A stretch of DNA of 64,000 nucleotides from assembly GCA_029939575.1 (NCBI GenBank), contig JAOZSR010000006.1:4037-68036 (forward strand), read 5' to 3'. Positions 16,574-29,354 of this stretch are shown here, one piece after another. The position numbers and the translations under genes are program-made. Numbering within the stretch: position 1 is the stretch's first letter; each line of letters opens with the position of its first letter. Origin of the DNA: Fidelibacterota bacterium (GTDB lineage: Bacteria > Fidelibacterota > UBA2242 > JAOZSR01). The notes below the pieces were generated by a model. The model had not been told where the DNA came from, searched no databases, and saw only the letters and a list, made by a program, of their open reading frames with translations.

Positions 16574-18847
16574 ATGAAGAATTTAGGACAAAGGTTATAT
16601 AAATGGATATTTCCATATATTTTGATTATTTCTGTTTTTCTTATTGGCAATTGTACAATTGATCCCATTAAACCCCCAACTTTACCAACATTTTACCAGA
16701 CGATAAACATTCCATTGGCCAATACCAATTTGCCATTGGCAAATTTACAGGATTCGCTTAATCACATTTTTGGTGATTCTTTGGCGGATTCACTCTGGTT
16801 TTTCTTTGAGGGTAGTCTTGATACAACAACTTTAACTAAGGATATTTTTGTTGTTCCAACGGCAATGGATATTGCATTTTCCCAGGAGTTTTCCGAAATA
16901 AGCGGCTCGGATATTTCTTTTGACACTACATTTAGTAAAATCATGAAATTGTCAGATCATATCCATGTGCCGGGAGTTTCTTTGCCCTTTGGTTTTGATG
17001 TTACCCTGGATTCTCTACAAAGAGAGCCTTTGATCAATGAAAATCATAAGATCAAAATTTTTGACAAATACAGTGTGCCATATTTTAAAAGAGTAGACTA
17101 CCTGACAATAGGCTCCGGTACTTTTAGCACGGAAATTACAAATGAACTACTTGTGGATATAGATTCAGTAAATATTGAATTATATAATATTGATGGAGAA
17201 TCAATTTCTAAATTATTTTTTGATAAGATACCGGCAGGAGAAAGCAGGTCAAAAGGTGAGGAAGGAAACCTGGCTGGAAAAAAAATGAGTGATTCGGTAG
17301 CCATTCAAATTAGTGCGATTTTTGCCGGAACAGATGGAGAGCCTTTATTAATTCCAGCCGAAACAGATCCTTTTGTAGATGTTGCTGTCAGGTTTGCTGT
17401 AGATAGTGTAGAAAGTTTTACCGGTATTCCCGAGCCTATAGAACTTTCCCAGTCAATACCAATACCAAGTTCAAATAATACAATTATAAGAGGAATTTAT
17501 TCCGATGTTCTTAGCGATTCACCGGATACAAACCAGATAACATTTCAGGTTCAGAATGATATGCAGGTAAATATTGATTTAGATATATCATTTTTGAATT
17601 TTTACGGTTCAAGCGGTATGTTGAATATTCATAACACATATTTTGCAGGTACTAGCGGTAGTGATATTTTACGCCTGGACAATGATACTTTAAGAAATTC
17701 TGATGCCAGTACTATTGTTGATTCAATAATTGTTCAGACTTTTGTAAACCTGGTTCCTGATGTTGGAGATACAGTGACTACAATACCCCTTTCTTCTCTC
17801 GATCAGAGTTTGGATATTAATATTAATGTGGCAATAATGCAATTTTCAGAAATTGTGGGATTTTTTAATGAATCTTTTGCAATTCCGCCGATAACAATTG
17901 AAGACATTCCCACTGGTTTTAGTGGCATTGATTTTGGAAATGTGTTCCTTAATTTGAAATTAAATAGTGAAATCCAGGCAAGTACTGATCTTAATCTTGA
18001 GATCGGTGGTTATCGCACTGGTTATGAGCCCGAAATTATTGAAATTATCCAAACAATTAATAAAGCCAGCGATACGAATCCGGTTGCAGAATCATCAGTA
18101 TCAATAGATATCGCTCCTGTATTCAACCTTATGCCGGATTCAATTATGGTAGATGGTGATGCATCGATACCTGCAAATGATACATCAAAATTACAAGTTG
18201 GAAAATCCTTTTGGGGGAATTATGAAATTACTGTACCTTTTAAATTAAAACTGGATCCACTTACTTTTATTCCTGTAAGTTCTACCACCTTTAATCCAAT
18301 CAGCAGCCAAATTGCTGAAAAACTTCGCTCCGGATTTATTGAAGCAAAAGTTATTAGTAAAGTAGAAAATAATTTTCCACTGGCCTGTATAATCGAGATT
18401 TTAATTTCAGATTTTGATTATTTTCCTATGGATAGCAGTACAGCTGATTCCGGGTATAATTGGATTGGAGATTCATTATTTGCAGATACTGATACCGGTC
18501 TGATACATATAAAAATTGACACTCTGGTTAGTATTGAATTGCCAAAACCCAATGAATTTAATCAGGATGGAAGTGTGAAAATTCCGTCAATATTGAATCA
18601 GCATAGCAATTTGGATTCTTTAACCTTTGAATCAATTTTAGAAGACAAAGTGCATTATATCAGGCCGAGAGTTTATTTAATTGGTACAGAAGATTATGTG
18701 ACAGTTAAACTCAGCGATGAAATAAAAATTCTTACTTTAATAAGTGTCACCATGGAAGCCGGAAAGTTTATTGGCCTTGACAATGACGAGTCTTCCGATA
18801 CTCTTGAAATTGATAATTTATCCAGAATAACCACAAATGGACATTGA
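16574..18847 (+). CDS. large surface lipoprotein, paralog A2
   Basis: Lipobox (…FLIGNC). Shares C-terminal blocks with A1 (NNFPL…, DTLxxIELPKxxE…). Confidence 0.5.
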   Translation: MKNLGQRLYKWIFPYILIISVFLIGNCTIDPIKPPTLPTFYQTINIPLANTNLPLANLQDSLNHIFGDSLADSLWFFFEGSLDTTTLTKDIFVVPTAMDIAFSQEFSEISGSDISFDTTFSKIMKLSDHIHVPGVSLPFGFDVTLDSLQREPLINENHKIKIFDKYSVPYFKRVDYLTIGSGTFSTEITNELLVDIDSVNIELYNIDGESISKLFFDKIPAGESRSKGEEGNLAGKKMSDSVAIQISAIFAGTDGEPLLIPAETDPFVDVAVRFAVDSVESFTGIPEPIELSQSIPIPSSNNTIIRGIYSDVLSDSPDTNQITFQVQNDMQVNIDLDISFLNFYGSSGMLNIHNTYFAGTSGSDILRLDNDTLRNSDASTIVDSIIVQTFVNLVPDVGDTVTTIPLSSLDQSLDININVAIMQFSEIVGFFNESFAIPPITIEDIPTGFSGIDFGNVFLNLKLNSEIQASTDLNLEIGGYRTGYEPEIIEIIQTINKASDTNPVAESSVSIDIAPVFNLMPDSIMVDGDASIPANDTSKLQVGKSFWGNYEITVPFKLKLDPLTFIPVSSTTFNPISSQIAEKLRSGFIEAKVISKVENNFPLACIIEILISDFDYFPMDSSTADSGYNWIGDSLFADTDTGLIHIKIDTLVSIELPKPNEFNQDGSVKIPSILNQHSNLDSLTFESILEDKVHYIRPRVYLIGTEDYVTVKLSDEIKILTLISVTMEAGKFIGLDNDESSDTLEIDNLSRITTNGH

Positions 18848-20178
18848 TCTTGATTAAATTTTTCCAATTTGTAATATTAATGACAGTTATATCTGTTGGA
18901 ATAAATGCGCAGACTCGTCGTGATCCCCGTGGAATGGCCTTGGCCGGGGCTTATGGATTGATGTCGCGTGGATATTTTTGTATAGATTATAATCCGGCAA
19001 ATCTGGCTATCCATGATCGTTATAAAAGTTATCGCTCTTTGGGCGGTTTGAATTTTGGATTTTCCAATAATTTTTTATCTTTATCTGAATATCAGAAATA
19101 TAACGGGAAAAATTTTGAAGCCGATAATGGGAAATTAAAAAACGAGTTTTTAACCAATTTGCCTAAAAATGGATGGCGGATTTTTTCAGATTTTCACTTT
19201 TCGCTTCCTCTGATTAATTATTCTTCAGTTAATAAAGCAATAACTTCAGATATAATTGTGATTGGAGATTTGGGATTGCCCAGAGGATTGATTTATTTTC
19301 TTTTTGATGGAAATCCATTAGATCGGGAATTGGATTTAGATTTTTCAGAAGAAACCCTGGCTATTGCACAGTGGGCATATTCTTTTGCGATTCCGGTTAA
19401 AAACTTTAATGTGGGTTTATCTCTGAAATATCTAATGGGAGGAGCATTTTTTGGTCTTGATCCGGATTCATCTTATGGCTCAATAACAACCAGTTTTGAA
19501 AGTGGGATAAATGGGAATGGCCATTATTTATTTGAGCAGAAAATTGGTGGACATGGTTTTGGAATTGATATCGGAGTTAATACTGAAAAAATTAATGGAT
19601 TCCGATTTGGCGTTTCAATAACCAACTTATTTGCAAATATAAATTTTGGCAAAGAAACGGTTATCACCAGAATGATTGATGCAGAAAAGATTCTTCCGTG
19701 GGATGGTAAGTTTTACCAGGTGGATTTTGAAATTGATAGCGCTAGTTTTGAAAAGTTTTTTGCCGGTGCCGGTTATGATGAGATCTTTAAAAGTGAGAAT
19801 ACAACAATAGAAAATCATAATAATATGAGTATCCGCTATCCATCTTTGGTACGATTTAGTGTTTCGAAAGATATTCAGGAAGAATCAGTATTAGCAATAG
19901 ATTTTGTGGCAGGCTTTGAAGATCGCTTATTTTCTTTTGGATCATGGAAATTCTGTGCCGGAGTCGAGACAACTCATTTTCCTCATACGCCATTACGGAT
20001 TGGAGTTGCATTTGGAGGAAAGGATCATCGATCTTTAAATTTCGGAAGCGGCTATCATCGTGGTTTTTTTCATTTTGATTGGGCTTTGGGATTCACTCAT
20101 TCTATATTTATCAAAAGTTCCAAAGGGTTGGAGTTTTCTGTAAATTTATTTACAACAAGATTGTGGAAAATAAAATAG
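18844..20178 (+). CDS. FadL/OMPP1-like outer-membrane beta-barrel, paralog B2
   Basis: Signal peptide. RGMALAGAYGLMSRGYFCIDYNPANLA motif. Collinear similarity to B1 (…NNGELQSEF/…DNGKLKNEF; LPLKGWQINF/LPKNGWRIFS). Confidence 0.5.
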   Translation: MILIKFFQFVILMTVISVGINAQTRRDPRGMALAGAYGLMSRGYFCIDYNPANLAIHDRYKSYRSLGGLNFGFSNNFLSLSEYQKYNGKNFEADNGKLKNEFLTNLPKNGWRIFSDFHFSLPLINYSSVNKAITSDIIVIGDLGLPRGLIYFLFDGNPLDRELDLDFSEETLAIAQWAYSFAIPVKNFNVGLSLKYLMGGAFFGLDPDSSYGSITTSFESGINGNGHYLFEQKIGGHGFGIDIGVNTEKINGFRFGVSITNLFANINFGKETVITRMIDAEKILPWDGKFYQVDFEIDSASFEKFFAGAGYDEIFKSENTTIENHNNMSIRYPSLVRFSVSKDIQEESVLAIDFVAGFEDRLFSFGSWKFCAGVETTHFPHTPLRIGVAFGGKDHRSLNFGSGYHRGFFHFDWALGFTHSIFIKSSKGLEFSVNLFTTRLWKIK

Positions 20179-20332
20179 CCTGAAATATTCATTACCACAA
20201 GGACATGAAAATATTCAGATAAAAAAATAAAGTCAACAAAACTATTAATCAAAATTTGTTTTTATGCCCGATTATTTTAAAAGGTTTTATTTTTGGAGTG
20301 ACGACATAGCAGTAATTTGTGAATAATTAAGA

Positions 20333-20959
20333 TTAAAATAGGTTAATTTCCATTCCAAATTTAACTGTTGACCATTGGATTGTGCTTTGAAATGGAGCAT
20401 TGTCACCCGGATACATTTCAACGGCTCTGAATGAGCAATACACAGAAAATAGGTTCATCAGGTTGATCCCTGTTTTATAACGCGCTGCAAATCCCATACT
20501 TGTGAAAGATTCCTTTTCATCTTGCAAATGGATCCCAAAATCCAATCCTCCATCCATTATAATAAATTTTGGCAAACGCCATATTCGCGCCAGGTCTAAT
20601 TCTGAATAGACAAAAATAGGAGTACCTACCAGATCTTTTAATTTTTCTTTGGCTTTAAATGTATAATGACCCGATTCAACTCCCAGATTCATCACGAAAT
20701 TATCATTATTAAAAATATTATTAATACCCAGGTAATATGAAACCGAGGAGCCGTTATTCCAAAAATGTTTCATATTATAACTGATAGCAGGAATAAATCC
20801 CGTATCAATACCGAGTGTTAATTTTTTAATTTTTACCTGTTTTTCAACAATTTTTAAGGAAGTTATAGCATCTTCCGGCAGACCAGTATTTATTTGAGCC
20901 TGGGTGTAATTAATGAAAAACAGCATAATTATTATAGAAAGGGGGAAATGTTTTTTCAT
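20333..20959 (-). CDS. small outer-membrane beta-barrel protein (OmpW/OmpA-membrane-like), putative
   Basis: Signal peptide MKKHFPLSIIIMLFFINYTQAQ. 208 aa with alternating aromatic and hydrophilic strands and a C-terminal aromatic residue. Confidence 0.35.
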   Translation of the reverse strand: MKKHFPLSIIIMLFFINYTQAQINTGLPEDAITSLKIVEKQVKIKKLTLGIDTGFIPAISYNMKHFWNNGSSVSYYLGINNIFNNDNFVMNLGVESGHYTFKAKEKLKDLVGTPIFVYSELDLARIWRLPKFIIMDGGLDFGIHLQDEKESFTSMGFAARYKTGINLMNLFSVYCSFRAVEMYPGDNAPFQSTIQWSTVKFGMEINLF

Positions 20960-22201: not shown

Positions 22202-25200
22202 ATGAAGGCATATAACATTAAAAAAAACATAGTGTTATTTTTAATTTTATTTTTAATATCATTTGCAAACGGGCAATATGGAAAAAATAAAGTTTGCTAT
22301 GACGAATTTGACTGGAATTATATTCAAACAGAGCATCTGGATATATTTTTTTATGAAGGTGGTGAAGAGTTAGCAAAGTTTGCAGCACCAATTGCGGAAA
22401 GACAATTTAAACGGATTCAGAATGTTTTAAAATGGGAAGTAAATAAGCGAACAGCCTTATTGATTTACAATTCTCATAATGATTTTCAGCAGACTAATGT
22501 TACTTTGAGTTATATGACAGAGGGAATAGGTGGGTTTACAGAACTTTTTAAAAATAGAGCGGTAGTTGCTTTTGAGGGAGATTATCATGGCTTTTGGCAT
22601 GTAATAAAACATGAATTGGTACATGTTGTTGTAAATGATATGGTTTATGGTGGTAATATTCAAAGTGTTATTTCAGGGCGAGTGCAATTAAACATACCTT
22701 TATGGATGAATGAAGGTTTGGCTGAATATTTGTCATGGAATTGGGATACACATGCCGACCTTATGCTTCGTGATATAGCCATGAGCAATAATATTCCTGA
22801 TATCAAATATTTGGATTATTATATGGCATATAAAGGTGGTCAATCTGTTTACCAGTTTATTTCGCAGAAATATGGTGAAGAAAAAATTGGAGAAATATGG
22901 CGCACTATAAAAAGTAAAAAAAATGTTGATAAAGGTTTTGAAGCATGTATTGGTATGGATACTGAGGAATTATCAGAAGAATGGCATAAATGGCTAAGAC
23001 GTGAATATTGGCCGGAAGTTGCTGATAGGGATGAACTGGAAAGTATTGCCATTCGTATTACCGACCATAAAAAATTAAAAAATCATTTTAATACTGCTCC
23101 GGCTATTTCTCCAAACGGAGAAAAAATTGCATTTATTTCCGATAGGAATGGATATGCAGATATTTATCTTGCTTCAGCCCGAGATGGTGAAATTTTAAAA
23201 AGAGTTGTTCGTGGTCAAAAATCTCCTGATTTGGAAGAGATAAAATGGCTAAATCCAAGATTAAGTTGGTCTCCGGATGGGAAAGAACTTGTATTAGCGA
23301 CAAAAAGTGGAAATACAGATGCACTCATAATGGTTAATGTGGAAACAGGAGATATAAAGAAAAAAACATTTGATAATTTAGAAGAAATTTTTTCTGCAGC
23401 CTGGTCACCAGAGGGAGATAAAATAGCATTTATCGGATTGAAACAATATTATACAGATGTTTATTGTTATCATATTAAAGAAGATCGATTGGAACAATTT
23501 ACTGATGATATTTTTTCGGATTTTGAGCCTTCATGGTCACCTGACGGGTCAAAAATAATTTTTTCTTCTCAAAGAGGATGTGATGGTGAAATTAAAAAAT
23601 TTAAATTATCAAAAGATATTTCTAGGATTAACTATCATCAAAAGGATTTGTTTATTTTAGATTCAGAGTCAAAAGAAATCCATAGGGTAACAAATAGTCC
23701 TTACGAAGAAGATAGCCCGATCTGGATGAAACAAAAAAACGAAATATTATTTTGCTCTGATGAAAGCGGGATCACAAATTTTTATACATTAAACTTAGAA
23801 ACTAATAAACTTACAGCATTGTCAAATGTCCTTACTGGCGCATTTCAACCATCAATGAACTATGATGATACAAGGCTGGTTTTTGCCGGGTACTCAGATC
23901 AGGGATGGGATATTTATTCAATCAGTAATCCGATGGGTAGAAGCAGTGATTCTTTGATTATTGCCCCTACGGGATTTGTTTCCAAGCGGCCAAAAGTATG
24001 GGAACAGTGGGCAGAAAAAGGAGAATTAGAAATCAAGAAAGATGAAAAATTTTCTGTTACACGGAAAATTGAAGAGGAAAAATCCTATTCAAATTATATT
24101 TTTGCACCTGGATATGATGAATGGAAAGAGTCCAATGAAAGTCCCTATGATTCGGAAAAAGATTTAGTTGAAAAATTGGATTCTGTTAATTATCAAACAA
24201 AAGAGGGCGAATTTGTTGTAAATGAATATAAAACCAAGTTGTCTCTTGATTTGGTCGATAATCGGGCCGGATATAGTACTTTTTGGGGTTTTCAGGGAAC
24301 GACTGTTTTTTCTTTTAGTGATGTTTTAGGTAATCATCGTATTTTGTTTGGAACTGAAATGTATCTTGATTTGGAAAATAGTGACTATTATCTCAGTTAT
24401 CAATATTTAACAAATAAAACTAATATTTATTTTTCAGCTTTTCACTCTGCTAATTTTTATTCTTCTGGATATTATTCCATGTGGCGGTTAAGAAATTATG
24501 GAGCAAGTACATCATTTTCGCGACCTTTATCCAAATTTACAAGGCTGGAATATGGTTTAACTCTGTACAATGTTGAGCAAAATTTAATTGATATTTTAAC
24601 TAGTCAAACTCTTCAAGAGACCAAAATTCACACAATTTTGCCACAGGCTTCCTGGGTTTTTGATAACACTCTTTGGGCATATTTTTATCCTATTGATGGC
24701 TGGCGAGCCAGAGCTGATCTTACTGGTAGTCCAAGGTATAATAAAAACAGTCTGGAATTTGTATCATTAAATCTAGATTTTCGTCGCTATTTTAAACTAA
24801 ACAGGGAATATTCCTTTGCTTTACGTTTCAGTGGTGGAATAAGTGAAGGTAAGAATGCTCAGCGTTTTTTCCTGGGTGGAGAAACAAATTGGATAAATCA
24901 AAAATTTAAACATTATCATAATTTTAGTAATGCAGAAGATATTTATTTTTCTCGGTTTATAACCCCTTTGCGAGGAGCCAGGTATTATGAAAGAGAAGGA
25001 ACAAGGTATTTTCTGACTAACTTTGAATTCCGTTATCCCTTTATAAAATATCTCCAGTTGGGTTGGCCAATTCCACTTATAACCGGTGGAATTCAAGGAG
25101 TTACTTTCCTTGATATTGGTTCAGCCTGGCATGATAGTAATTTTCATCCTTTTACCAGAACAGCCGGTAATGATTTAATTATGGATGACCTGGTTGGAGG

Positions 25201-25324
25201 ATATGGATTCGGAACCAGACTATTTTTTGGATATTTTTTATTAAAAATAGATATTGCCTGGAGATTTGATCTGCATACAATACATGATCCGCAATATTAT
25301 TTTTCACTGGGTATGGATTTCTAG
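22202..25324 (+). CDS. three-module outer-membrane protein: N-terminal HExxH domain, TolB-like PD40 beta-propeller, C-terminal Omp85/BamA-type beta-barrel
   Basis: Signal peptide. HELVHVV motif in the N-terminal domain. PD40 repeats (ISPNGEKIAFISDRNG…, WSPDGKELVLAT…, AWSPEGDKIAFIG, SWSPDGSKIIFSS). C-terminal surface-antigen barrel (…GGIQGVTFLDIGSAW…GYGFGTRLFFGYFLLKIDIAWRFD). Confidence 0.6.
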   Translation: MKAYNIKKNIVLFLILFLISFANGQYGKNKVCYDEFDWNYIQTEHLDIFFYEGGEELAKFAAPIAERQFKRIQNVLKWEVNKRTALLIYNSHNDFQQTNVTLSYMTEGIGGFTELFKNRAVVAFEGDYHGFWHVIKHELVHVVVNDMVYGGNIQSVISGRVQLNIPLWMNEGLAEYLSWNWDTHADLMLRDIAMSNNIPDIKYLDYYMAYKGGQSVYQFISQKYGEEKIGEIWRTIKSKKNVDKGFEACIGMDTEELSEEWHKWLRREYWPEVADRDELESIAIRITDHKKLKNHFNTAPAISPNGEKIAFISDRNGYADIYLASARDGEILKRVVRGQKSPDLEEIKWLNPRLSWSPDGKELVLATKSGNTDALIMVNVETGDIKKKTFDNLEEIFSAAWSPEGDKIAFIGLKQYYTDVYCYHIKEDRLEQFTDDIFSDFEPSWSPDGSKIIFSSQRGCDGEIKKFKLSKDISRINYHQKDLFILDSESKEIHRVTNSPYEEDSPIWMKQKNEILFCSDESGITNFYTLNLETNKLTALSNVLTGAFQPSMNYDDTRLVFAGYSDQGWDIYSISNPMGRSSDSLIIAPTGFVSKRPKVWEQWAEKGELEIKKDEKFSVTRKIEEEKSYSNYIFAPGYDEWKESNESPYDSEKDLVEKLDSVNYQTKEGEFVVNEYKTKLSLDLVDNRAGYSTFWGFQGTTVFSFSDVLGNHRILFGTEMYLDLENSDYYLSYQYLTNKTNIYFSAFHSANFYSSGYYSMWRLRNYGASTSFSRPLSKFTRLEYGLTLYNVEQNLIDILTSQTLQETKIHTILPQASWVFDNTLWAYFYPIDGWRARADLTGSPRYNKNSLEFVSLNLDFRRYFKLNREYSFALRFSGGISEGKNAQRFFLGGETNWINQKFKHYHNFSNAEDIYFSRFITPLRGARYYEREGTRYFLTNFEFRYPFIKYLQLGWPIPLITGGIQGVTFLDIGSAWHDSNFHPFTRTAGNDLIMDDLVGGYGFGTRLFFGYFLLKIDIAWRFDLHTIHDPQYYFSLGMDF

Positions 25325-25449: not shown

Positions 25450-26046
25450 TTATTCCTGAATCAGAGTTTCGACTTCCTGGGCTTTTGAGCGTCTTCCGGC
25501 ACGGATATAGCGTCCGATTGATTCTTCGAAGTATTCATTAGCCTTTTCTATGTTTCCTTTAGTTCTTTGTTCAATACCGGCTTCTTTCAAATACATTGCT
25601 GATTCTTCCCACCGACCTTCTTTTTTAAGTGTTTCAGCCAAATTTTCCAGGTTTGGTTGTTCTTTTGAAACTTCCATTTTTTCACCAGACAGGGCATTTT
25701 TCAGGGTTGGAATGAGTTTTTCATAAATTGCTGATTTGGTATGGATATCATAGGCTCCGGCTGAAAGATAATCATCTCTGACCTGGATAGATAATTCTCC
25801 AGTCAAGCCTATTACGGGAACATTTGGTTTTAATTGTTTCATTAGTTTTAAAACTTTTAATCCATCCATACCTGGTAAATTGTGATCTAAAATAACGGCA
25901 TTATAATCATTTGTTTTGAATAATTCCAGAGCTTTTTCACCATCTACTGCTTCATCTGTTGAGAATTCTTCTGAACCCAGATATTCAATCAAAGCATCTC
26001 TTAACAGTGCTTTATCATCGACTAATAATATTTTCTGTTTTTCCAT
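25450..26046 (-). CDS. stand-alone response-regulator receiver (CheY-like) with helical C-terminal extension
   Basis: REC motifs LLVDD…ILDHNLPGMDG…GLTG…HTK. Confidence 0.75.
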   Translation of the reverse strand: MEKQKILLVDDKALLRDALIEYLGSEEFSTDEAVDGEKALELFKTNDYNAVILDHNLPGMDGLKVLKLMKQLKPNVPVIGLTGELSIQVRDDYLSAGAYDIHTKSAIYEKLIPTLKNALSGEKMEVSKEQPNLENLAETLKKEGRWEESAMYLKEAGIEQRTKGNIEKANEYFEESIGRYIRAGRRSKAQEVETLIQE

Positions 26047-26060
26047 AATTGTCCTTTCGC

Positions 26061-27266
26061 TTATAATTTAAATTTTATTTTAAAAGTTGTCCCTTTACCA
26101 ACCTTGCTTTCTGCTTTTATAGTACCCTCATGGTTTTCAATAACTTTTTTACAGATCATCAGACCCAGGCCGGTTCCCTGCTTTCCCTGCCATTTTGTAT
26201 AATCCGGCCGCCAAATTTTTTCAAGATTTTCAGGAGAAATACCACAACCTGAATCGCTAATTTCTAAATTGGCATATCCATTTTCATAATTTGTTACCGT
26301 AGATAGTGTTCCTTTTCCATCCATTGATTTATAGGCATTTTCAATAATATTGATAAAAACCCTGAAAAGATCTTCTTTGCTGGCAGACATTTTCAAAGAT
26401 GTTTCTGTATATTTTTCATTTATTATTACTTCTGGATTTTCCTGGACTCTTGAGTCCATATAAAGATGAATTGCGGTTTTAAGTAAATTATTTAAGTCTA
26501 CTTCTTCTTTATGTGTTTTTTCAAGGTCTATAGCAGATCCGAGTTCTTTTAGTTTTTTCCCTAATTCTTTAAAAAAATCCATTAGTGTTATTATACTTTT
26601 ACCTTTTTCAATTGTATCAGTAGCAAGATTCGAGATAAGTTTTTTGTTTTCTTCCAGTTCTTGTTTAATACTTTCAGATATACTTGCTTCTGGAATAATT
26701 GAATAAAGATTATCAGTTTCATTTTTTATTTTTTCGACTTTTTTATTTAGCATCTGGAGTCGAAGCATCAATGAAGCATAATAACTGCCAGACATGTCAT
26801 GACCAATACTCTTTACAATTAACTGGCTTTCCTGGATGGCTTGTTTTCTTTCTTCATTGAGTTTTTCATTTCTCAATCTCTCATTTTGCCATTCGAATCC
26901 TTTTTCAATTCTTTCGAAAAACAGATCAGTATATTCTACAACTACATGTTTTTGAATAAAATCTTTCGCACCAAGACGCAATGAATCTACAGCATTTTCT
27001 ATGGTAATTTCACCGGTTAATACTATAACATAATTTTTCCCCATCAGCTTTTGGGTTTCCATTTGTCGTAAAAAATCGAGGCCCGACATGTTCGGCATTT
27101 TCAAATCAAGAAGGATGACCCGGAAGTTTTTATCCTTAAGAGTATTCAGCCCCTCTGCTGGATCAGTAAAGTATTCTGAAGTCCAACCATTTTCATCGAG
27201 CATTTCCTGAATACTCATACAAAAAGGTTCACTGTCGTCAACTAATAAAAGGTCTTTGTAAAACAT
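26061..27266 (-). CDS. receiver-modulated histidine kinase (N-terminal REC plus HisKA/HATPase_c)
   Basis: REC (LLVDD…LLDLKMP…VLTGE…AKDF), H-box SIGHDMSGS, N-box NIIENAYKS, G-boxes ISDSGCGI and GTGLGLMICKKVI. Confidence 0.8.
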   Translation of the reverse strand: MFYKDLLLVDDSEPFCMSIQEMLDENGWTSEYFTDPAEGLNTLKDKNFRVILLDLKMPNMSGLDFLRQMETQKLMGKNYVIVLTGEITIENAVDSLRLGAKDFIQKHVVVEYTDLFFERIEKGFEWQNERLRNEKLNEERKQAIQESQLIVKSIGHDMSGSYYASLMLRLQMLNKKVEKIKNETDNLYSIIPEASISESIKQELEENKKLISNLATDTIEKGKSIITLMDFFKELGKKLKELGSAIDLEKTHKEEVDLNNLLKTAIHLYMDSRVQENPEVIINEKYTETSLKMSASKEDLFRVFINIIENAYKSMDGKGTLSTVTNYENGYANLEISDSGCGISPENLEKIWRPDYTKWQGKQGTGLGLMICKKVIENHEGTIKAESKVGKGTTFKIKFKL

Positions 27267-29072
27267 TTAATATCTTTCTAAAGGTAATTCCAGCACAACA
27301 CGAGAAAACGAATCGCTTTCATTAAATTTGATATCGCCCTGATAACTGGATGTGATTATTTCATTTATTACTTCTAAGGAAAATTGATTTGGACTATAGT
27401 CTTTACTATCCCCCAACATATTTTCCACAGATTTACTTGATATTTTTACTCCATCTTTATTATTTATACCAATGATATTGGTTACAAGCAATTTATCTGG
27501 AGTAATTCTGACATTAATTTGAATTGTGGAACCATAATGTTCGAATCTGGAAATTATCAAAGAAATTAAGGATATTAAAACTTCTATAATTTCATTTGGA
27601 TCTACTGAAATTTCCGGTAATTGATTTTCATTTTCTTTGTCCCTCTTGATATTTATTTTTTTTGCAGTAAAATCGCTGGTTAAAAATAGCATACTTTCAT
27701 CTAATAATTCCTTCCAGGTTCTTTTTACATGAATAAATCCAGCCCGGGTTGAGAATTCCTGTAATACACGCACTTCACCTGCTACTTGCTGGAGGTTTGT
27801 TTTAATCATTAAAAGACGCTCAATTAAATTTTCTTTTGGAATATCTTTATTTTTTTTACTTTTTTGAATAATGTTGTTTATCCCTAACTGTGCCTCTGTA
27901 AGAGGATTTACTACATCATTAGGTATTCTCATAGCAAGGGTACCAAGTGCTGTTAGCCGTTGTCTTTTCATGGTTTTAACAGCACTGAGTTTCATTGTGT
28001 CAACATAATCTACATTTTCTATTGCTACTGAAATCATATCAGATAATATTCTAAGGTAATGCTCGTCATTTTTGGTAAAATATTTTCCGGTATCAGTATT
28101 TGAAATTTTGTTGTATAGTTTGATTGCACCTACTGTAGTTTTTTTAATTTTTATCGGCATTCCCATAAATGTCAAACGGTCGCCAAATTTTAAATGGCTT
28201 TTAATAGCATTTCTGTATTTACCTTTATATTCCGGTAAAAGCAGAACGTTTTTTGAACGAATAGTTCTATTTTCTTTAACAATAGTTCCGGTAAGCCCTT
28301 CACCGACAGTATGGCTGGCGACATTAATTAATTCTTTCGGTATGCCGTAACCACCAATCAAAATCAAACTGTTTTTGTCCTCTTTTTTCCTGAGATAAAT
28401 TTCACAGGTTTCTGATGAAATGGTTTTGGCGGTATTTTCAGCAACAAAATCTAATAAGTCTTTTATATCTGTGAAAGATAGAATCTGAGTTCCAACATTC
28501 ATTAAAAGTTCAAGATAGTTGGTTTTTCTTTTTTCTTTTTTTAATAGTTCGGCATTTTCAATCGCCATAGCAACCAAACGGGAAATTAGGAGGAATACAT
28601 CTAAATCTGATTTGTTAAAATTATGTAAATCAGAAGCGCTTCTCATTAATCCAATAAATTTTCCGTTTTGAGATTTCATAGGTACTGCCATAAAGGATTT
28701 TGCTTTATTTTGGTTAGACTCGCTGAATTTGCCCTTCCACTCAAGCTGAACATCCAGACTTTTGAGATCTTCATTTGTTTTTTTATCCAGATCACGAATT
28801 AATAGAGGTTCCTGATTATTAAATACCCATCCGGTTAATCCCTCATTTCTTTTGTAGGTGACTTCCCGTGATTTGTTTGAAGATAATCCACTGGTTCTGG
28901 CTAATTTGAGAATATCATCTCCTTCATCATAAAGAAATACAGAACAGCCTTTCCAGTTAAAAACTGAAGGAATGATTTCTACGCTTTTTTCTAGAATACT
29001 ATCAAGAGAGCGGGCGCTGAAAACAGATAGTACTTCCAGAAGTTGTTCATTATTTAATGTGCTTAGTTTCAC
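27267..29072 (-). CDS. two-GAF-domain sensor with a degenerate histidine-kinase-like C-terminus (putative pseudokinase)
   Basis: Two GAF-like blocks (…GLTGWVF…, …GEGLTGTIV…). The H-box position reads AMRIPNDVVNPLT, with His replaced by Asn. The C-terminal region has no N, G1 or G2 ATP-binding motifs. Confidence 0.5.
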   Translation of the reverse strand: MKLSTLNNEQLLEVLSVFSARSLDSILEKSVEIIPSVFNWKGCSVFLYDEGDDILKLARTSGLSSNKSREVTYKRNEGLTGWVFNNQEPLLIRDLDKKTNEDLKSLDVQLEWKGKFSESNQNKAKSFMAVPMKSQNGKFIGLMRSASDLHNFNKSDLDVFLLISRLVAMAIENAELLKKEKRKTNYLELLMNVGTQILSFTDIKDLLDFVAENTAKTISSETCEIYLRKKEDKNSLILIGGYGIPKELINVASHTVGEGLTGTIVKENRTIRSKNVLLLPEYKGKYRNAIKSHLKFGDRLTFMGMPIKIKKTTVGAIKLYNKISNTDTGKYFTKNDEHYLRILSDMISVAIENVDYVDTMKLSAVKTMKRQRLTALGTLAMRIPNDVVNPLTEAQLGINNIIQKSKKNKDIPKENLIERLLMIKTNLQQVAGEVRVLQEFSTRAGFIHVKRTWKELLDESMLFLTSDFTAKKINIKRDKENENQLPEISVDPNEIIEVLISLISLIISRFEHYGSTIQINVRITPDKLLVTNIIGINNKDGVKISSKSVENMLGDSKDYSPNQFSLEVINEIITSSYQGDIKFNESDSFSRVVLELPLERY

Positions 29073-29354
29073 TCAGGGATCCTTTTTGTTTATTTTACTT
29101 GATTACATTTTTTTTCACCCTTTAAATATAATTAAAAACCAGTTAAGATTTCAAGAAGTGTTCTAAATATAATAAAAAAAAACAAATTAAAATAAAATAT
29201 TAATATTTACCTGAATTTTAGAGGAGAAGTATAAATATTGAGAAAAAAATATTTTATAACTACTTGATAATTATTAAATAAAAATTTACTTTACTATTGA
29301 CAGTGTAATAATAGATACTTAATTTTTATAGTCTGTGAAAATTGGAGTTAGTGA

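Follow-up and report, generated by a model that had tools for sequence, protein, structure and literature searches.

We analysed a 64,000-nucleotide (nt) stretch of DNA from a Fidelibacterota bacterium (contig JAOZSR010000006.1), referred to below as the window, with the focus on a signalling cassette of three contiguous minus-strand open reading frames (ORFs) at 25450-29072; all features of the cassette given below lie on the minus strand. As read from the ORF list and translations, gene 1 (27267..29072, GTG start) encodes a GAF-GAF pseudo-histidine kinase of 601 amino acids (aa), gene 2 (26061..27266) a 401-aa histidine kinase led by a receiver domain (REC-HK), and gene 3 (25450..26046) a 198-aa receiver with a TPR-like tail, the latter two being backed by Pfam as well. 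The initial annotation had described three contiguous genes at exactly these positions, and this holds: the ATG of gene 2 abuts the stop codon of gene 1 with no gap, and gene 3 follows after a 14-nt spacer. The start of gene 1 is supported by an alignment in which the N-terminus of the 601-aa protein matches its orthologs. A Pfam scan finds two GAF domains and no further domain in the 601-aa protein, Response_reg and HATPase_c in the 401-aa protein, and Response_reg with weak, sub-threshold TPR matches in the 198-aa protein. Regarding the first of them, the best explanation of the observations that follow is that it is a kinase-dead descendant of an NtrB/ZraS-type HisKA histidine kinase.

Scans of the whole 601-aa protein with Pfam and NCBIfam returned the GAF domains only, plus a weak LIC_11548 kinase match; these could not settle the kinase question, and therefore profiles of the C-terminus alone were used. 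A profile built from the C-terminal 250 residues of 18 orthologs aligns end to end, over 246 positions, with the kinase cores of ZraS (9jfj, E-value 3e-8) and ThkA (3a0r, E-value 2e-7), which consist of a dimerisation and histidine phosphotransfer (DHp) domain and a catalytic and ATP-binding (CA) domain. The AlphaFold2 (AF2) model of the C-terminus alone, with a predicted local distance difference test score (pLDDT) of 75.6, has two long helices and an alpha/beta domain, and all the top Foldseek matches of this model are histidine-kinase cores with E-values of about 1e-11. LvrB, HK853, ZraS, DivL (4q20), RetS (6dk8) and the histidine-kinase-related domain of plant phyA are among these matches, and ChpT and Spo0B are absent from the top 50. 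Profile and model together show that a true DHp+CA kinase core makes up the last 250 aa of the GAF protein. Its first part is a DHp-like helical hairpin (aa 356-444; 27741..28007), which is delimited by the AF2 helices 334-406 and 413-444, the ZraS/ThkA profile alignment and Foldseek. In the full-length AF2 model (pLDDT 79.7) the former is one unbroken helix that runs from the exit of the second GAF domain (GAF-B) through Asn385, and the latter is helix α2.

Ortholog alignments locate the remnant of an H-box, QRLTALGTLAMRIPNDVVNPLT, at aa 371-392 (27897..27962). Within it Asn385 (codon AAT, 27918..27920) occupies the position of the phosphorylated His, called position 0 below, because 'RlPNEitNPL' of the family aligns on 'GVAHEIRNPL' of ZraS in the profile alignment. 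The replacement of the phospho-acceptor His by Asn, first noticed by eye, is thus confirmed by an alignment in which Asn385 stands against the His of both ZraS and ThkA; its codon AAT differs from CAT by one transversion. A conserved His elsewhere in the hairpin combined with recovered ATP-lid motifs, as expected of an ordinary kinase, was looked for and not found, since no other His is conserved in the DHp helices, either in the ortholog alignment or in the C-terminal profile. Pfam HisKA is detected in 0 of the 18 orthologs, and in the full-length gene 1 protein neither HisKA nor HATPase_c rises above the gathering threshold, with no match at E ≤ 1. The protein has the layout of the HisKA class, namely a DHp hairpin and then a Bergerat-fold CA domain, and lacks both the His and the N, G1 and G2 boxes of that class.

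The second part of the core is a degenerate CA domain of the Bergerat fold (aa 449-597; 27282..27728), recognised by profile, AF2, Foldseek and Pfam, with a disordered lid at aa 547-558. In the profile alignment the two N-box Asn positions of ZraS become Thr/Ile in the family, and the ZraS G2 motif 'GTGLGL' is aligned to 'tPqqFsl'; at the G1 Asp, a residual 'DN' is left in most orthologs and the window protein has Asn ('GINNKDG'). The C-terminus of the window protein alone matches HATPase_c with an E-value of 0.011 and 16.6 bits, below the cut-off of 26.4, over profile positions 2-110 of 111. The earlier description of a HATPase-like region without N, G1 and G2 motifs is therefore right as to the motifs, but the end-to-end sub-threshold match shows a domain that is degenerate rather than absent. 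Conservation of the CA remnant is 0.52, below that of DHp helix α1 (0.72), which is conserved equally with GAF-B (0.73). The earlier view that the protein is probably not a kinase is strengthened on three counts: the DHp+CA fold is kept, the acceptor position is Asn in every ortholog from Fidelibacterota and Cloacimonadota, and the N-box and G2 are lost.

About 48 orthologs of gene 1, with identities of 42-66%, occur in metagenome-assembled genomes (MAGs) of Marinimicrobia (Fidelibacterota), where the database labels are merely 'GAF domain-containing protein' or 'GAF and PtsI domain'. In these orthologs the segment QRLTALGT.A.R.PN[DE]..N.L is nearly invariant, and P384, N385 and N389 are fully so. 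The family was widened by a library-wide profile search and a scan of one genome per species, and the loci were compared by script. Asn is found at position 0 in Fidelibacterota and Cloacimonadota, plus a few contigs with other MAG labels; the window and 37 further loci of this Asn clade all read 'R.PN[DE]..N.L', and the check whether the His-to-Asn change is conserved or sporadic in homologs hence shows it to be fixed. A small intermediate clade with no taxonomy assigned (2 contigs with 4 proteins, loci L007/L009 and L008) has Ser, Gly or Asn, and about 38 loci of Anaerolineae (Chloroflexota), at 25-28% full-length identity, have His in the form 'QRI[RLP]HE[AT][AS]NPL'. Q371, R372, G377, R382 and N389 are invariant in all clades, and P384 and N385 within the Asn clade. 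The N-box Asn, G1 and G2 are missing in all clades, the His clade included, with 'LSPLHFEWALA' at the G2 position in Anaerolineae. The His clade already has a degenerate CA domain, so that degeneration of this domain came first and loss of the His followed. In a neighbour-joining tree built on the C-terminal region the His clade stands apart from the non-His clade, which fits a single loss of this residue.

Nearly every locus of every clade has the same arrangement, with the GAF gene followed by a REC-HK of 365-415 aa and then a REC protein of about 200 aa with a common tail, and the cassette is kept in about 70 loci of three phyla. The flanking genes are unrelated, so that the functional link of the GAF protein to the adjacent REC-HK and REC, at first suggested from one genome, is upheld by genes that travel together. 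Sequence comparison indicates that gene 1, with its ORF intact in more than 40 genomes, is under purifying selection.

The Anaerolineae orthologs (L006 and L046-L082, e.g. L006:910-2787) have a canonical 'HE..NPL' box, have no N, G1 or G2 box and keep the three-gene cassette, whose composition there is H1-D1-H2-D2. A phosphotransferase would be the obvious reading of them, because a His-bearing hairpin with a dead Bergerat domain equals the architecture of ChpT, Spo0B and PhyT, and these GAF-GAF proteins may constitute an undescribed sensor-gated His phosphotransferase. In the intermediate clade, a tandemly duplicated cassette lies at L007:2595-10597 (on the contig shared with L009), with a GAF paralog of 793 aa that has three GAF domains and Asn at position 0 and another of 617 aa with Ser; after these come one REC, two REC-HKs and a further REC whose tail is SNAP/TPR-like. 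Genes for an extracytoplasmic function (ECF) sigma factor and for a zf-HC2 anti-sigma-like protein that has a receiver fused to it lie upstream of the duplicated cassette. Three contigs labelled Spirochaetaceae or Acidobacteriota (L011, L028 and L032) have cassettes 44-65% identical to those of Marinimicrobia, and these labels are probably binning or labelling errors.

The N-terminal half of the gene 1 protein is its sensor part. GAF-A (aa 8-153; 28614..29051) is assigned by Pfam GAF_2, GAF and GAF_3, by a PDB match to the Nlh1 GAF domain (4g3k) and by AF2 secondary structure, and a long AF2 helix (aa 154-197; 28482..28613) joins it to GAF-B (aa 203-333; 28074..28466), which is assigned by Pfam and is the most conserved domain, with 52 invariant columns in the ortholog alignment. 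GAF-B has an NKFDE-type motif (N321 K322 x9 F332 x3 D336 E337), which is completed by the helix after the domain; its residues are invariant or near-invariant among orthologs and it is found also in the His-clade protein P0183. The NKFDE signature (N-K-xn-F-x3-D-E) is a mark of cyclic-nucleotide-type GAF domains (PMC11977230). Since the signature is complete in GAF-B and kept in the His clade too, it is reasonable to regard a cyclic nucleotide as a plausible candidate ligand of this domain. No small-ligand sensor domain is recognised in the cassette other than the GAF domains of the gene 1 protein.

As to the partner proteins, the receiver of the REC-HK has the residues DD, D54, T/S and K. Its presumed phospho-acceptor, His156 (codon at 26799..26801), is invariant in all clades and corresponds to the His in 'AHEINNPL' when aligned with canonical REC-HisKA-HATPase relatives. 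Among solved CA domains that of ZraS is nearest, and besides its own receiver no sensor domain is recognised in this protein. The initial annotation had credited it with intact H, N, G1 and G2 boxes. This is correct for N, G1 and G2 and for the invariant His156, but the H-box is atypical and is missed by Pfam HisKA: it reads 'GHDMSGSYY' in the window, takes the strongly conserved form 'VGHD[IM]SGSY[YF]' in the family and, for every clade, fits 'VGHD[IM].G[ST].[YF]', Gly standing at H+4 and the Pro at H+5 being gone throughout. The DHp hairpin of the REC-HK is also tens of residues longer than in its nearest canonical relatives. The third protein, with the receiver active-site residues Asp54, Thr82 and Lys104, had been taken for a stand-alone REC. 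It is not a bare receiver, as it carries a conserved, helical, TPR-like tail of about 70 aa (aa 130-198; window 25453-25659) with the motifs 'G[KR]WE..A..L[KE][EQ]A...RAG' and 'RWEES..YLKEAG...RAGR..KA.EVE', and a weak SNAP/TPR match is found in an ortholog. This tail is presumably the protein-interaction output of the pathway.

The cassette is isolated from its neighbours, with a convergent gene for a Peptidase_MA/PD40 protein of 1040 aa on one side and a divergent yicC-gmk-rpoZ-coaBC block on the other. The intergenic region upstream of the cassette (29073..29354), common to the divergent yicC-like gene, is the presumed promoter region; it has one consensus promoter match on the minus strand, TTGAAA-18-TATATT at 29154-29125, which is weak evidence, and in a promoter and terminator scan of the cassette the counts are near the shuffled expectation and uninformative. 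A scan of the whole 64-kb window with Rfam gives no family at the gathering score and no tRNA, riboswitch or other known RNA. The convergent neighbour (22202-25324, plus strand) consists of an N-terminal Peptidase_MA_2 domain, PD40 beta-propeller repeats and an unannotated C-terminal region of about 400 aa, and for three sizeable ORFs at 16574-20959, two on the plus strand (757 and 444 aa) and one on the minus strand (208 aa), Pfam gives nothing at E ≤ 1e-5. The GC skew stays positive along nearly all of the window, and the plus strand carries the majority of the genes; the cassette is among the few minus-strand blocks.

How such a protein might work is a matter of interpretation. Since the acceptor His and the ATP site are lost, the GAF protein would control the neighbouring REC-HK and receiver by docking or dephosphorylation, not by phosphorylation. 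The reading that we favour, with a probability of roughly 0.4, is that it is a ligand-gated, kinase-dead subunit that docks a receiver and is most likely a dedicated phosphatase. It would neither autophosphorylate nor carry a phosphoryl group on position 0, and its conserved DHp helix α1 would dock the REC of the REC-HK and/or the REC-TPR protein; helix α1 is the surface by which kinases dock receivers. Under the control of the GAF domains, the hydrolysis of the receiver phospho-Asp would then be accelerated via the conserved Asn at H+4 (N389). The whole would amount to a split bifunctional kinase, in which the REC-HK supplies the kinase activity, the GAF protein the regulated phosphatase activity, and the REC-TPR protein the output.

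Several observations point in this direction. Position 0 is His, Asn, Ser or Gly by clade while the cassette, helix α1 and N389 stay conserved, which argues for a function of the GAF protein without need of the His, and we infer that this conserved function is receiver docking on DHp helix α1. The H+4 Asn is invariant across the sampled clades except for one paralog, and 'N[DE]xxN', as found in all Asn-clade loci, agrees with the Thr/Asn phosphatase motif (E/DxxT/N). In HisKA kinases, the Thr/Asn at H+4 is needed for phosphatase activity alone and the acidic residue at H+1 solely for kinase activity (PMC3510030). In the same work, CrdA~P had a half-life of 2.6 min with the His-to-Ala form of CrdS, against 0.7 min with the wild type and 47.6 min with N375A, and the His-to-Ala change lowered phosphatase activity just modestly in both CrdS and EnvZ (PMC3510030). 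Moreover, the two proteins are complementary, in that the H+4 Asn kept in the GAF protein is lost in its partner REC-HK. Together with the His that the sister clade bears on a degenerate CA domain, as the phosphotransferases ChpT and Spo0B do, this pattern speaks for a role at a receiver domain at least as much as for a DivL-like mechanism.

There are also points that weigh against a dedicated phosphatase. The need of the His in phosphatase activity varies, and PleC H610A loses both activities (PMC3510030). In the paralog P0180 the residue at H+4 is Gly, both the Pro at H-1 and the Arg at H-3 are unusual and without explanation, and it could be for structural reasons that Asn-Pro-Leu is conserved from H+4 on. 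Either the REC of the kinase or the REC-TPR protein may be the docking partner, and the NKFDE motif is no proof of cyclic-nucleotide binding. Taken jointly with the Anaerolineae proteins, the phosphatase reading would extend to a three-step series, which as a whole we consider rather unlikely: a bona fide HisKA kinase would have given rise to a His phosphotransferase that is gated by GAF domains and whose CA domain is dead (Anaerolineae), and this to the Asn form (Fidelibacterota and Cloacimonadota) as a ligand-gated dedicated phosphatase. A phosphorelay intermediate would in this way have turned into a phosphate sink, with an amide at position 0 and/or at H+4 placing the hydrolytic water; the signal would enter solely by the phosphatase arm, and the input-less REC-HK would give a constitutive kinase flux.

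The initial annotation had proposed reverse signalling in the manner of DivL, which we hold to be possible though somewhat doubtful. Here the non-catalytic DHp would bind either a phosphorylated or an unphosphorylated receiver and, together with the GAF ligand state, would allosterically switch the REC-HK between kinase-on and kinase-off or scaffold the REC-HK with the REC-TPR protein. This explanation shares the structural evidence of the phosphatase reading, DivL (4q20) itself being among the Foldseek matches, and it agrees with the strict genomic linkage of the three genes and with a REC-HK that has no sensor domain beyond its receiver. It also has a precedent, for DivL uses a repurposed DHp/CA output domain to sense whether a response regulator is phosphorylated (PMC4211667). 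However, the CA domain of DivL is ordinary and its contact with CckA is via PAS, whereas the CA motifs are lost in the gene 1 protein, and both the near-invariant H+4 Asn beside a drifting position 0 and the canonical 'HE..NPL' box of the sister clade are left unexplained. The phosphatase and the DivL-like models are close rivals, inseparable by computation.

The other explanations carry much less weight. Mixed DHp dimers like those of RetS or ChrS, by which the pseudo-kinase would block or redirect the autophosphorylation of the REC-HK, are suggested by RetS (6dk8) among the Foldseek matches, by the pairing of the ChrS pseudokinase with HrrS (PMC9491836) and by the adjacent genes, gene 2 starting directly after the stop of gene 1. 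What makes such heterodimers improbable is the strong difference between the two DHp domains in both sequence and length: one H-box is 'RIPNDVVNPLT' and the other 'GHDMSGSYYAS', the hairpin of the REC-HK is tens of residues longer, the specificity positions of helix α1 are dissimilar in a by-eye comparison that says nothing further, and each protein appears suited to homodimers. Still less probable is a phosphorelay component like Spo0B, ChpT or PhyT, shuttling the phosphoryl group between the REC of the kinase and the REC-TPR protein through a residue other than position 0. In its favour are the DHp hairpin with a non-ATP-binding Bergerat domain, which is the architecture of ChpT (PMC3433190) and PhyT (PMC5898713), the cassette composition of H1-D1-(H2)-D2 and the His kept by the Anaerolineae orthologs. 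Against it, every sequence of the window clade has Asn at position 0, and a residual phosphotransferase role is unlikely in the Asn clade because there is no alternative conserved DHp His. Finally, there is a negligible chance that the gene is decaying or that an ordinary GAF histidine kinase was misread by eye. The weak end-to-end HATPase_c alignment could be cited in favour, but an ordinary kinase is ruled out by the profile, which puts Asn at the acceptor position, and by ATP motifs missing in all orthologs; a decaying pseudogene is ruled out by intact, conserved ORFs under purifying selection in the more than 40 genomes.

The family offers a phylum-wide natural example with intermediates, in which the CA domain is dead and the His kept in one clade, the His is also lost in the sister clade, and the partners are constant. 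It bears on whether a His-less DHp serves as a dedicated phosphatase or as a receiver sensor, on whether a two-component pathway can have its sensor input on the catalytically dead subunit alone, and on the rewiring of a phosphorelay by a single His-to-Asn transversion. Moreover, it corrects the database annotation, as proteins labelled only as GAF-containing are pseudo-histidine kinases. Their host lineages are abundant and uncultured, from marine habitats and anaerobic digesters.

To our knowledge, pseudo-histidine kinases are known from very few cases, namely DivL, PsmA, the laboratory-evolved ChrS, and the histidine-kinase-like domains of plant phytochromes and ethylene receptors. The gene 1 protein belongs with them, since it has a histidine-kinase fold in which the His position holds a residue that cannot be phosphorylated, and its orthologs conserve this. 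DivL likewise has the DHp+CA fold without a phosphorylatable His and works with a hybrid kinase and a single-domain receiver, and its DHp is thought to dock a receiver, as we propose for the gene 1 protein (PMC4211667). Nevertheless, DivL has Tyr at the His position, PAS sensors and ordinary CA motifs and is confined to alphaproteobacteria, whereas the gene 1 protein has Asn, GAF sensors, a degenerate ATP site and an H-box of the NtrB/ZraS-like family; it qualifies as a pseudo-histidine kinase but is outside the DivL lineage. The nearest catalytic relatives are the HisKA kinases of ZraS/ThkA/NtrB type, whose H-box 'LG.LA..[VI].[HN]E[IV].NPL' is almost identical but which are active kinases with the His and the N, G1 and G2 boxes.

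ChpT, Spo0B and PhyT resemble the gene 1 protein in their hairpin, forming a four-helix bundle, followed by a Bergerat domain unable to bind ATP (PMC3433190, PMC5898713), and their place in the pathway is between a receiver and the terminal response regulator. They differ in having an essential His and no cytoplasmic GAF sensors; in our family the phosphotransferase-type architecture is present, but a conserved His on helix α1 is found only in Anaerolineae and not in the Asn clade. PhyT, thought at first to be a phosphatase, sequesters its regulator as well. The split that we propose has a parallel in CheA3/CheA4 of Rhodobacter sphaeroides, where kinase and phosphatase/phosphotransfer activities are on two proteins (PMC3591291), although these are of the CheA class, not HisKA, CheA3 keeps a phosphorylatable His domain, and there is no GAF sensor. 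The histidine-kinase-related domain of plant phytochromes is similar in that a GAF sensor is helically fused to a histidine-kinase-like DHp/CA without the conserved His (PMC4525182, PMC5712524), and dissimilar as part of a eukaryotic bilin photoreceptor with PAS-GAF-PHY sensors and no receiver-domain partners. PsmA of Streptomyces, reported in 2026, is another naturally conserved histidine-kinase-like (hybrid) protein without the catalytic His (PMC12963549), but it is a polarisome-associated hybrid that binds DivIVA, unrelated in architecture and phylum. Set beside these systems, none of this amounts to a wholly new category, and the mechanism that we give is an inference; the novelty lies in an unannotated family of GAF-GAF pseudo-kinases that spans several phyla and sits in a fixed cassette, and in a His-bearing sister clade by which the route of degeneration is shown.

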